A program made the translations under genes and the position numbers. From NCBI RefSeq assembly GCF_900539095.1, contig NZ_UQAR01000003.1: a DNA stretch of 64,000 nt, one strand, 5' to 3'. The notes beneath the pieces are model-generated. The model made no database searches. It had not been told where the DNA came from and saw nothing but the letters and a program-made list of their open reading frames with translations. The DNA is from an uncultured Ruminococcus sp. (GTDB lineage Bacteria > Bacillota > Clostridia > Oscillospirales > Ruminococcaceae). Positions 55,930-57,701 of the stretch are shown here, one piece after another. The first letter of the stretch is position 1. The number at the start of each line of letters is the position of its first letter.

Positions 55930-56712
55930 CTATCCAAGTGCCACATCAAGTATCATCATAAGCACAAAGCCCAGTGCAAAAACTATAGTTCCGATATTGG
56001 AGTGAGGCTTTTCCGACATTTCAGGTATAAGCTCTTCCACCACCACATATATCATCGCTCCTGCCGCAAAGCTCAAAAGATACGGCAAAACAGGGATTAT
56101 AAACTGTGCCAAAAGTATGGTCAGCACAGCACCCACTGGCTCAACAACGCCCGAAAGCACGCCGTATACAAACGCCTTGCCCTTTCCCATACCCTCCGAA
56201 CGCAGCGGCAAAGATATTATCGCACCCTCAGGAAAGTTCTGTATTGCGATACCAAGCGACAAAGCCAGTGCACCTGCGGCACTTATTGCGTTATGGTCAG
56301 CCGCCCAGCCTGCATACACAACGCCTACCGCCATGCCCTCGGGGATATTGTGCAGCGTCACCGCTAGCACAAGCATGGTAGTTCGCTTGAAACCGCTTTT
56401 CGCTCCCTCAGGCTCAGTAGCGTTCATGTGAAGATGCGGTATCACCCTGTCCAGTATCAGAAGAAAGAATATGCCAAGAAGAAAACCCACTGCCGCAGGG
56501 ATAAATCTCAGCCTGCCCATATCCGCCGACTGCTCCATAGAGGGTATCAGCAAGCTCCACACGCCTGCCGCCACCATTACTCCTGCCGCAAAGCCTGTCA
56601 AGGCTCGCTGGACAAGATAATGCAGATTTTTCTTCATGAAAAGCACACACGCCGCACCAAGAGATGTACCCAAAAACGGTATCAGAATGCCTTTAAAAAT
56701 TGTCATGCTCAT
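55930..56712 (-). CDS. ZIP family metal (zinc/iron) transporter ZupT-like
   Basis: 260 aa; HNIPEGMAVG signature. Confidence 0.85.
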   Translation of the reverse strand: MSMTIFKGILIPFLGTSLGAACVLFMKKNLHYLVQRALTGFAAGVMVAAGVWSLLIPSMEQSADMGRLRFIPAAVGFLLGIFFLLILDRVIPHLHMNATEPEGAKSGFKRTTMLVLAVTLHNIPEGMAVGVVYAGWAADHNAISAAGALALSLGIAIQNFPEGAIISLPLRSEGMGKGKAFVYGVLSGVVEPVGAVLTILLAQFIIPVLPYLLSFAAGAMIYVVVEELIPEMSEKPHSNIGTIVFALGFVLMMILDVALG

Positions 56713-57083
56713 TGTTCTTCACTGATATGATTCTTCAATGCCGCAAAGCTCTCGTCAGACAAAACGTGTTCTATCTTGCAGGCGTCATGTTCAGATATTT
56801 TTCTGTCAACACCAAGACTTACAAGCCACTCTGTCAATACAAGGTGCTTTTCGTAGATCTTTTCCGCAACATATCTGCCGGCGTCAGTTAGAGTGATAAA
56901 ACCGTTTTCGTCCATTGTGATGAACTTTCCCTCACGAAGTATCTTCATAGCGTTTGATACGCTGGGTTTTGTAACATTCAGTTCCCTTGCAACATCAATG
57001 CTCCTCACCTCGCCGTTTTGCTTGTTCCATAAAACGAGTATCGTCTCCAGATAGTCCTCCCCAGACGTGTGAATGTTTCCCAT
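56709..57083 (-). CDS. DtxR/MntR-family metal-dependent transcriptional regulator (Cys at DtxR-C102-equivalent position)
   Basis: 124 aa; SGEDYLETI N-terminus; EKHL...EHDACKIEH metal-ligand block. Confidence 0.75.
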   Translation of the reverse strand: MGNIHTSGEDYLETILVLWNKQNGEVRSIDVARELNVTKPSVSNAMKILREGKFITMDENGFITLTDAGRYVAEKIYEKHLVLTEWLVSLGVDRKISEHDACKIEHVLSDESFAALKNHISEEQ

Positions 57084-57100
57084 TTGTATGCCCCTTTCCT

Positions 57101-57118
57101 TGTTAGCTATAGCTAACT
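57101..57118. promoter_or_regulatory. operator TGTTAG-ctatag-CTAACT at RBS of regulator gene
   Basis: perfect palindrome. Confidence 0.55.
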
Positions 57119-57242
57119 TGCATCTTTAAAATTACTGCACGCCACGAAACTAAGCCTATTAAAACAAAATGCCTTTTCACAAAAAAGCTTTTTGCAAACT
57201 TAGCCGCACCCTTCTCGTGCAGTATTAAAAGTATAGAATATC

Positions 57243-57296
57243 AGTTAATGTATACTAACTTATATTTATTATATCACAGAAAATATGTTTTGTCAA
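57243..57296 (-). promoter_or_regulatory. consensus promoter (TTGACA-17-TATAAT) of regulator-ZIP operon with operator AGTTAA-tgtata-CTAACT at +1
   Basis: minus-strand TTGACAAAACATATTTTCTGTGATATAAT followed directly by palindrome. Confidence 0.55.
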
Positions 57297-57354
57297 GCAA
57301 ACAAAAAAAGCCGTGACAAACCTTTTCATCTGCCACGACTTTGCACATAGCTAT

Positions 57355-57609
57355 TTACTTGAATCTTGCTAAAAAGCCCTTCTTCTCATAAGGCTCTCTC
57401 TCAGCGGAAATAAAGGTGTAGCCTGTTTTCTCCACAGCCTCTTTCAGCTTTTCGTCAGAGATATCCTCCTCAACTATAGCCACAGTTTCACCTTTTGCGT
57501 GTGAAGAACTTACCTTTTTCACCTTGAAATTCTGTCTGAAAGTGTCATTCATATGCGATTCACACATTCCGCACATCATGCCGTCTATTTTTACTGTGAT
57601 CTTTTCCAT
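57355..57609 (-). CDS. heavy-metal-associated (HMA) domain protein, CopZ-like metallochaperone
   Basis: 84 aa; GMMCGMCESH. Confidence 0.75.
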   Translation of the reverse strand: MEKITVKIDGMMCGMCESHMNDTFRQNFKVKKVSSSHAKGETVAIVEEDISDEKLKEAVEKTGYTFISAEREPYEKKGFLARFK

Positions 57610-57632
57610 TTCTGACCCTCCAATGCTTAATA

Positions 57633-57650
57633 GGTTAGAACTTGCTAACC
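57633..57650. promoter_or_regulatory. operator GGTTAG-aacttg-CTAACC upstream of HMA gene
   Basis: perfect palindrome 14 bp upstream of start. Confidence 0.55.
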
Positions 57651-57701
57651 ATGCTTATTGTAACACAGCCTATAGCTTTTTTCAAGTCAATAATGTAAAT
57701 T

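Follow-up and report, generated by a model that had tools for sequence, protein, structure and literature searches.

The 64,000-nt stretch of contig NZ_UQAR01000003.1 from an uncultured Ruminococcus sp. analysed here (the window, on whose numbering all positions and strands are given) encodes a 124-aa protein of the DtxR/MntR family (56709..57083, minus strand) that is probably the homodimeric, two-domain repressor of an iron regulon, with Fe2+ as its corepressor. The evidence lies in the metal ligands of this protein, in the distribution of a palindromic box, GTTAG-N6-CTAAC, within the window and around homologues of the regulator, and in the covariation of one residue of the recognition helix with a base of that box. 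Iron is proposed as the signal because of the content of the regulon and the presence of a cysteine, Cys102, at the metal site; it is likewise from regulon content that we infer the role of 'master regulator' given to the protein by the original prediction.

The assignment to the DtxR family is borne out by both Pfam domains, Fe_dep_repress (PF01325, 31.6 bits against a cut-off of 26) and Fe_dep_repr_C (PF02742, 48 bits against 27), by matches to proteins in the PDB and by the predicted fold. A phmmer search of PDB sequences ranked E. coli MntR first (6e-11) and B. subtilis MntR next (3e-8), then ScaR, DtxR (about 1e-6) and IdeR (about 1e-4). The AlphaFold2 model, calculated from 29 homologues with a predicted local distance difference test score (pLDDT) of 90.7, was matched by Foldseek to B. 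subtilis MntR (2f5f) with a template modelling (TM) score of 0.87 and to IdeR (7b1y) with one of 0.83; its winged-helix part comprises helices at residues 28-35 and 39-51 and strands at 55-57 and 62-65. Because the scores against the NCBIfam equivalog models are all far under their cut-offs (83 against 153 and 62 against 138 for the MntR models NF008273 and NF003025, and 30.8 against 290 bits for the DtxR model NF053665), the protein is a member of the superfamily but an orthologue of neither MntR nor DtxR. Its relatives are numerous: a homology search returned at least about 8,000 protein clusters at E <= 1e-10, counted regardless of the cysteine, from Ruminococcus, Oscillospiraceae, Lachnospiraceae, Blautia and others, carrying only the name 'metal-dependent transcriptional regulator'.

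Selectivity for iron over manganese in this superfamily is accepted to depend on sulfur ligands at positions 10 and 102, where MntR proteins have Asp or Asn and Glu, respectively (PMC10317159; PMC11672702). Mapping of the ligands by alignment, using a DtxR reference sequence identical to PDB chain 1bi0_A, places Cys102 of the regulator (own numbering, in the motif EHDACKIEH) on the metal-site position occupied by Cys102 in DtxR and Glu99 in MntR, as had been proposed. The predicted MntR-like character of the N-terminus was also upheld, as Asp10 and Glu13 align with MntR Asp8 and Glu11; with His80, Glu105 and His106, which correspond to MntR His77, Glu102 and His103, five of the six MntR ligands are present, the sixth being the one exchanged for cysteine. 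Relative to DtxR, Glu105 and His106 carry the same numbers and His80 corresponds to His79, while Asp10 stands at Met10, such that this second sulfur ligand of IdeR and DtxR is missing, and Glu13 at Arg13. The DtxR ancillary site is mostly gone, with Thr84 in place of Glu83 and Glu98 in place of His98, leaving only His80, and the protein ends at residue 124, without an SH3-like C-terminal domain. In the 29 homologues (57-97% identity), Glu9, Glu13, His80, Asp100, Ala101, Cys102, Glu105 and His106 are all invariant, and position 10 is Asp, Asn or Met. Residue 10 was considered as a predictor of genomic context and rejected, as proteins of all three types are found with boxes and with feo or flavodoxin genes.

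Searching the window for GTTAG-N6-CTAAC with up to one mismatch yielded 11 boxes against 1.5 expected, a number reached in none of 100 shuffles. As the two-mismatch count is at the level of chance (25 against 24.9 expected), only sites with no or one mismatch are informative, and the looser definition was dropped. Four boxes (35768..35942) lie upstream of a minus-strand feoA-feoA-feoB operon (32040..35734): those at 35768 and 35803 are exact, the latter just past the -10 element of a TTGACA-17-TAAACT promoter (35856..35828), and those at 35906 and 35927 each have one mismatch. The operon consists of two feoA genes (35734..35522 and 35470..35249), feoB (35149..32660), a small Cys-rich open reading frame (ORF; 32606..32448) and a gene for a DtxR-like paralogue of the regulator (32420..32040), and the same gene order occurs in three of the related loci described below (L087-L089). 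A second cluster is formed by minus-strand genes for DUF2325 (37371..37069), DUF3793 (37025..36453) and flavodoxin (36440..36033), spanning 36033..37371. Two boxes (37404..37446) are found at the DUF2325 promoter (TTGACA-18-TAATAT, 37458..37429), of which one falls within the spacer and -10 region and the other a little further downstream, and an exact box (37039..37054) is positioned directly 5' of the Shine-Dalgarno sequence of the DUF3793-flavodoxin genes, a position that is also occupied in L087 (1136) and L089 (1608). Tandem box pairs in the window are 21-35 bp apart.

Ferrous-iron uptake combined with flavodoxin is a classic low-iron response. The genes expected of a manganese or zinc regulon were not encountered, in that no NRAMP, MntABC or ZnuABC gene was found beside any box, and no Fur box matching at least 14 of 19 positions was found at these iron promoters. 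DUF2325 and DUF3793 genes occur with flavodoxin behind boxes in ten related loci (L034, L036, L046, L049, L051, L057, L059, L066, L087 and L089); this arrangement is consistent across Clostridia and suggests an iron-starvation context for both families.

The regulator gene itself has such boxes, and lies on the minus strand together with its promoter, both of its operators and a ZIP gene. The consensus promoter claimed at 57268..57296 is present, with TTGACA-17-TATAAT matching at 12 of 12 positions in the promoter scan and a TG before the -10. Of the two operators proposed downstream of it, both recovered by the pattern scan, O1 (57244..57259) has one mismatch, its sequence being GTTAATGTATACTAAC (plus strand) or GTTAGTATACATTAAC (coding strand); it begins 8 bp past the -10 and so covers about +2 to +17. 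O2 (57102..57117) is a perfect 16-bp palindrome, GTTAGCTATAGCTAAC, whose centre is 142 bp from that of O1. It had been placed at the ribosome-binding site (RBS), and this requires some refinement: since AAGGAAAGGGGCATACAA-ATG comes directly after O2, the operator adjoins the Shine-Dalgarno sequence rather than lying on top of it. The proposed co-transcription with a ZIP transporter is well supported. The 260-aa ZIP-family protein (55930..56712; Pfam Zip, PF02535, 94 bits against a cut-off of 35) has a start codon that overlaps the TGA of the regulator gene as ATGA, an arrangement indicative of translational coupling, and relatives of 80-84% identity retain the regulator-ZIP pair, which was seen in L081, L083 and L171 as well as in the strain-level relative L170. 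Against the NCBIfam ZupT equivalog it scores 118 bits, below the cut-off of 252.

The distribution of the box was then compared across loci surrounding homologues of the regulator, 80 of them from genomes (52-65% identity) and 80 from metagenomes. Position 10 in the genome loci is Asn in 42 cases and Asp and Met in 13 each. The genome loci contain 40 exact boxes in 858 kb, where 0.83 would be expected, and the metagenome loci 33 in 599 kb, where the expectation is about 0.57; over all 160 loci, the exact box is about 50-fold enriched. Although ORFs of at least 120 aa make up 85% of bases, 35 of the 40 exact boxes in the genome loci fall outside them. Taking the first ORF candidates either side of every exact box and scanning the resulting 91 ORFs with Pfam identified FeoA 24 times, the regulator family 16-18 times, DUF2325 11 times, FeoB seven times and DUF3793 four times. 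In many lineages, among them Cuneatibacter, Hominisplanchenecus, Faecalispora and Intestinimonas, boxes occupy the interval between the regulator gene and a feoA-feoA-feoB operon transcribed divergently from it. Boxes are also found before DUF2325-DUF3793-flavodoxin genes and before ZIP genes (L063), and one locus (L066) has the gene order DUF2325-DUF3793-flavodoxin-ZIP-regulator. In L083/L084 (80% identity; 1-5156), the regulator-ZIP pair forms the tail of a haem-related operon; that of L083 encodes two haem-binding Shp-like proteins, a periplasmic binding protein, a FecCD permease and an ATP-binding cassette (ABC) protein, and bears two exact boxes at its 5' end. All three boxes around the regulator gene of the window, including the one upstream described below, are unchanged in L170, which has 95% nucleotide identity.

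A logo built from 47 exact sites reads R-GTTAG-Y-N4-R-CTAAC-Y, with an AT-rich centre and uninformative flanks, which corresponds to two inverted NCTAA repeats separated by a 4-bp spacer. DtxR-family iron sensors bind four CCTAA repeats (TTAGGTTAGSCTAACCTAA) as two dimers (IdeR review, PMC10317159); the boxes described here have two repeats only, and do not form the 19-bp four-repeat operator. In IdeR, Gln43 is the sole residue making a direct hydrogen bond to a base, namely the first of each repeat (PMC10317159). Its equivalent in the regulator is residue 44, the last of the recognition helix segment T38-K-P-S-V-S-N44, which resembles S-G-P-T-V-S-Q of DtxR at the contact positions Ser37, Pro39, Thr40 and Gln43.

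Across L001-L169, residue 44 is Arg, Val, His, Asn, Lys or Ile, and it covaries with position 6 of the box, the first base of the NCTAA repeat. Proteins with Arg44 are associated with GTTAGC (20/24 in the genome loci, 18/26 in the metagenome loci, 38/50 pooled), and those with Val44 with GTTAGT (14/34 in the genome loci, alongside 13 with C, 19/30 in the metagenome loci and 33/64 pooled), the pattern thus being replicated in an independent set of loci. Asn44, found in the window and in L083, goes with GTTAGA in 8 of 16 cases in the genome loci, and is not represented in the metagenome set. For the pooled comparison of Arg with Val and C with T, the odds ratio is 7.7 (Fisher p = 5.7e-6, uncorrected for shared ancestry). 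On general grounds of protein-DNA recognition, it is chemically plausible for Arg to pair with G:C, Asn with A:T and Val with T. The correspondence between residue 44 and the first base of the repeat could represent a recognition rule for the whole subfamily. The suggestion that this protein is the one binding the boxes hence gains comparative support, both from this covariation and from the co-localisation of box and regulator in distant Clostridia, although at the level of prediction.

Several observations weigh against this interpretation. The co-localisation result is biased, because the loci were picked through the regulator, and 44 of the 80 genome loci have no box within 6 kb. The counts behind the covariation ignore phylogeny, and the Asn44 class consists of two related genomes only. 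Autoregulation, as originally proposed, fits the window, where the regulator's own promoter carries two boxes, but does not hold in general: a box is present within 400 bp upstream in only 16 of the 80 genome homologues, L081, L171 and L085 lack an upstream box, and relatives of 83-84% identity have none near the regulator. As so many loci and such close relatives have no box at this gene, self-regulation seems to be lineage-specific. The protein is closer in sequence to MntR than to DtxR, and a response to Mn2+, or a mixed one, is possible, because the MntR-type Asp10 and Glu13 are retained. Furthermore, members of the ZIP family are mostly annotated as transporters of zinc, the same regulon includes the gene for a second DtxR-like protein, and both the binding and the metal response are predictions made from sequence.

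The similarity to MntR raises the alternative that the protein binds the boxes but senses Mn2+, as a true MntR, or Zn2+, with the ZIP protein a manganese or zinc importer under homeostatic control. The top sequence and structure matches are to MntR proteins, Asp10 and Glu13 are MntR ligands, ZIP proteins commonly carry a zinc-transporter annotation and DtxR itself responds to several metals in vitro (PMC11672702). Nevertheless this seems unlikely, as the genes beside the boxes are feoAB and flavodoxin, and in one relative the haem-binding Shp/FecCD ABC operon, rather than NRAMP, MntABC or ZnuABC; MntR Glu99 is replaced by an invariant Cys, both MntR equivalog scores are far under their cut-offs, and the ZIP gene zupT is regulated by iron and Fur in C. 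difficile (PMC6311696). It is less probable still that an unrelated factor, such as one of the Fur family, binds the palindromes, or that these are not protein sites at all, the proximity of a DtxR-family gene being incidental. Such a reading can appeal to the predicted nature of box binding by the regulator, and a Fur homologue may be encoded outside the window. Within it, the sole tblastn hit for a B. subtilis Fur sequence was spurious, falling in the gene for a surface protein of 2042 aa. The box is unlike Fur boxes, none of which reaches the 14/19 threshold at these promoters. Its half site and spacing are of the DtxR-family iron sensor type, it is enriched about 50-fold beside regulator homologues in the 160 loci, and it shows the residue-base covariation.

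A third possibility is that the 126-aa DtxR-like paralogue from the end of the feo operon reads the boxes, either by itself or in competition, with the 124-aa protein regulating something else. The paralogue has the same family fold (PF01325, 45.8 bits; 37% identity to the regulator), is always found in the box-controlled feoA-feoA-feoB-small Cys-rich ORF-paralogue operon of Ruminococcus, and has a nearly invariant recognition helix, SKASTVKMTQ. However, its family is small, with 175 homologues, of which those named by source are from Ruminococcus or Porcipelethomonas, whereas in Cuneatibacter, Faecalispora, Intestinimonas and Sedimentibacter boxes accompany feo operons that lack the paralogue and have the 124-aa type adjacent. 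As boxes occur without it, and as the operator-base covariation concerns the 124-aa family, the paralogue is best regarded as a member of the regulon, and possibly a modulator, rather than the primary reader of the boxes; we consider the contrary improbable. All six of its ligand positions are occupied by non-ligand residues (Lys/Arg, Phe, Ser/Cys, Val/Ile, Val/Ala and Ser), hence it could not by itself make the regulon metal-responsive. As it would be expressed when feo is derepressed, it might modulate the same boxes independently of iron, or be an accessory protein similar to FeoC. Copies of the paralogue are located at 32040-32420 (minus strand) in the window and at 6001-6378 in L087, L088 and L089.

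If the 124-aa protein is indeed an Fe2+-dependent repressor, its metal-loaded dimer would occupy the 16-18-bp boxes (R-GTTAG-Y-N4-R-CTAAC-Y) singly, one dimer per box. At the feoA, DUF2325, HMA and regulator promoters, initiation would be blocked by the boxes located in the spacer, at the -10 or at +1, and those adjoining an RBS (O2 and the DUF3793 box) may act as roadblocks or add cooperativity. The controlled set would comprise feoA-feoA-feoB, the iron-sparing DUF2325 and DUF3793-flavodoxin operons, the HMA gene upstream of the regulator, and the regulator-ZIP operon, whose importer probably carries Fe2+ or several divalent cations. A drop in iron would release the repressor from DNA, leading to synthesis of Feo, the ZIP transporter, flavodoxin, the HMA protein and more repressor. 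In this scheme we infer the binding, the Fe2+ signal, repression rather than activation, the roadblock at O2 and the substrate of the ZIP transporter.

The regulator shares features with several known systems. It has the same winged-helix and helical dimerisation domains as the actinobacterial Fe2+ sensors DtxR of C. diphtheriae and IdeR of M. tuberculosis and S. erythraea, with Cys102, Glu105 and His106 of the primary site at the same positions and His80 equivalent to His79; the operator is also built from NCTAA repeats, with the geometry of the 'half site' that a single dimer of SeIdeR binds (PMC10317159), the boxes likewise overlap the -10 or +1 of iron-uptake promoters, and the recognition helices are comparable (T-K-P-S-V-S-N against S-G-P-T-V-S-Q). 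By contrast, it lacks the SH3-like third domain and the ancillary site (His79, Glu83 and His98, plus Glu170 and Gln173), has Asp10 for Met10 and an additional MntR-type Glu13, uses a single two-repeat palindrome in place of the 19-bp four-repeat box bound by two dimers, is only 24% identical, and comes from a low-GC organism of the Clostridium class. With the Mn2+ sensor MntR of B. subtilis and E. coli it has in common the two domains, a similar length, the top match in both sequence (6e-11) and structure (TM 0.87), and five of the six binuclear-site ligands (Asp8, Glu11, His77, Glu102 and His103); it differs in having an invariant Cys for Glu99, and a regulon of feoAB and flavodoxin rather than mntH or mntABCD.

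TroR of Haloferax volcanii represses uptake genes when iron is sufficient, while troR itself is constitutively expressed; chromatin immunoprecipitation sequencing gave the motif TTTAGGC-NNN-CCTAAA, which recurs in tandem at iron-uptake promoters with a distance of about 30 bp. The resemblance, as judged from motif and regulon, is that this too is a two-repeat palindrome with a 4-bp spacer occurring in tandem pairs (21-35 bp apart here), but TroR is archaeal, acts in another promoter context and is constitutive, whereas the present regulator has boxes of its own. In terms of function, the closest parallel is the Fur regulon of Clostridioides difficile and C. acetobutylicum, which contains the same set of feo, the flavodoxin fldX and zupT; in C. 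difficile, their induction follows when iron is low or Fur is lost (PMC6311696). The regulator family and box are unrelated; a DtxR-family protein appears to take this role here.

The protein family, the half-site geometry and the logic of the regulon are each known elsewhere. What is new is the combination of an MntR scaffold with Cys102 and without either the ancillary site or the SH3 domain, the predicted exclusive use of single-dimer boxes, and the apparent takeover of a Fur-type regulon in low-GC anaerobes. Full-text literature searches turned up no DtxR-type iron regulon described for Clostridia, Ruminococcus or Lachnospiraceae, and nothing placing DUF2325 or DUF3793 in the context of an iron regulon; curated databases such as RegPrecise were outside the scope of this search, and an earlier in silico prediction of the regulon is possible. 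How iron is controlled in the fibre-degrading and butyrate-producing Clostridia that are dominant in the gut and rumen is essentially uncharacterised, the Fur paradigm usually being assumed.

A broader and more tentative proposal, which we consider somewhat more apt to fail than to stand, is that Clostridia of the rumen and gut (Oscillospiraceae, Lachnospiraceae and relatives) have this regulator as their main Fe2+ sensor. Under it, a natural exchange of Glu99 for Cys, combined with Asp, Asn or Met at position 10, would have retuned the MntR scaffold to iron; the protein would act through IdeR-type single-dimer half sites and have taken over the feo, flavodoxin and ZIP regulon that belongs to Fur in C. 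difficile; and in Ruminococcus a metal-blind paralogue, produced from the derepressed feo operon, would modulate the same boxes. Were this true, the 16-bp box could readily be used to predict iron regulons across thousands of metagenome-assembled genomes, and the subfamily would constitute a natural test, on an MntR scaffold, of the sulfur-ligand rule for Fe/Mn selectivity. It would also provide an iron-starvation context for DUF2325, DUF3793, the small HMA protein and the ZIP transporter, which may import Fe2+, and the association of Arg, Val or Asn44 with G, T or A in the operator would be a simple, testable recognition rule.

The HMA gene (57355..57609) encodes an 84-aa HMA-domain protein with a GMMCGMC motif (PF00403, 28.5 bits), which scores below every CopZ cut-off in NCBIfam. 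It was originally described as divergent from the regulator gene, which is incorrect: it lies upstream on the same minus strand, with its own promoter (57657..57685; TTGAAA-17-TACAAT with a TG before the -10, 10 of 12 matches in the promoter scan) and its own intrinsic terminator (57307..57342, minus strand; a 15-pair stem followed by a T-run), which separates it from the regulator promoter. The statement that it carries the same operator is correct, as an exact box, GTTAGAACTTGCTAAC, lies at 57634..57649, 8 bp past the -10 and shortly before the RBS, and is identical in L170. This places a CxxC-containing HMA protein with its own box within a regulon that is otherwise iron-related. An HMA gene is also found near feoB in L066, at about -5171 relative to the regulator, and in L088 a 124-aa protein with a faint HMA match (6371-6745) follows the paralogue.

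The leader between O1 and O2 (57118..57243, minus strand; about 124 nt) can form a long imperfect hairpin, at approximately 57137-57224 on the minus strand (TACTGCACG...CGTGCAGTA), with an A/U-rich tip. Its minimum free energy of -43.7 kcal/mol is weak relative to shuffled sequences (z = -1.8), and it is conserved in one strain-level relative only, those of 80-84% identity lacking the whole leader. A riboswitch or other known RNA was rejected on the basis of this z score and because there is no Rfam match at E <= 1 over 55500-58000. A separate promoter for O2 was similarly rejected, as the promoter scan of the leader gave no promoter-like site. Both O2 (CTAAC-AAGGAAAGGGG) and the box at 37039-37054 (CTAAC-CAAAGGAGG) are directly 5' of a Shine-Dalgarno sequence and distant from any recognisable promoter, a recurring internal-operator arrangement that could represent either a roadblock or an undetected promoter. 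Downstream of the ZIP gene, folding identified a terminator hairpin with a U-run (55828..55861, minus strand; z = -3.25 for the region), followed by UUUGUUUUGUG.

Two further observations concern the surroundings of the feo operon. The 52-aa ORF between feoB and the paralogue (32448-32606, minus strand) encodes a single hydrophobic helix together with a Cys-rich tail (SSCGGSCGCCPNSSHCH); L087, L088 and L089 each have a small ORF at the matching position, of which the L088 copy alone matches PF12669 (FeoB_associated), weakly. A one-mismatch box (31971-31986) is located between the paralogue and a MacB-like ABC exporter pair, consisting of an ATPase (31887..31171) and an FtsX permease (31159..28901). 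A box occupies the matching position in two other Ruminococcus contigs (L087, 6439; L089, 6431), which hints that the exporter belongs to the regulon.

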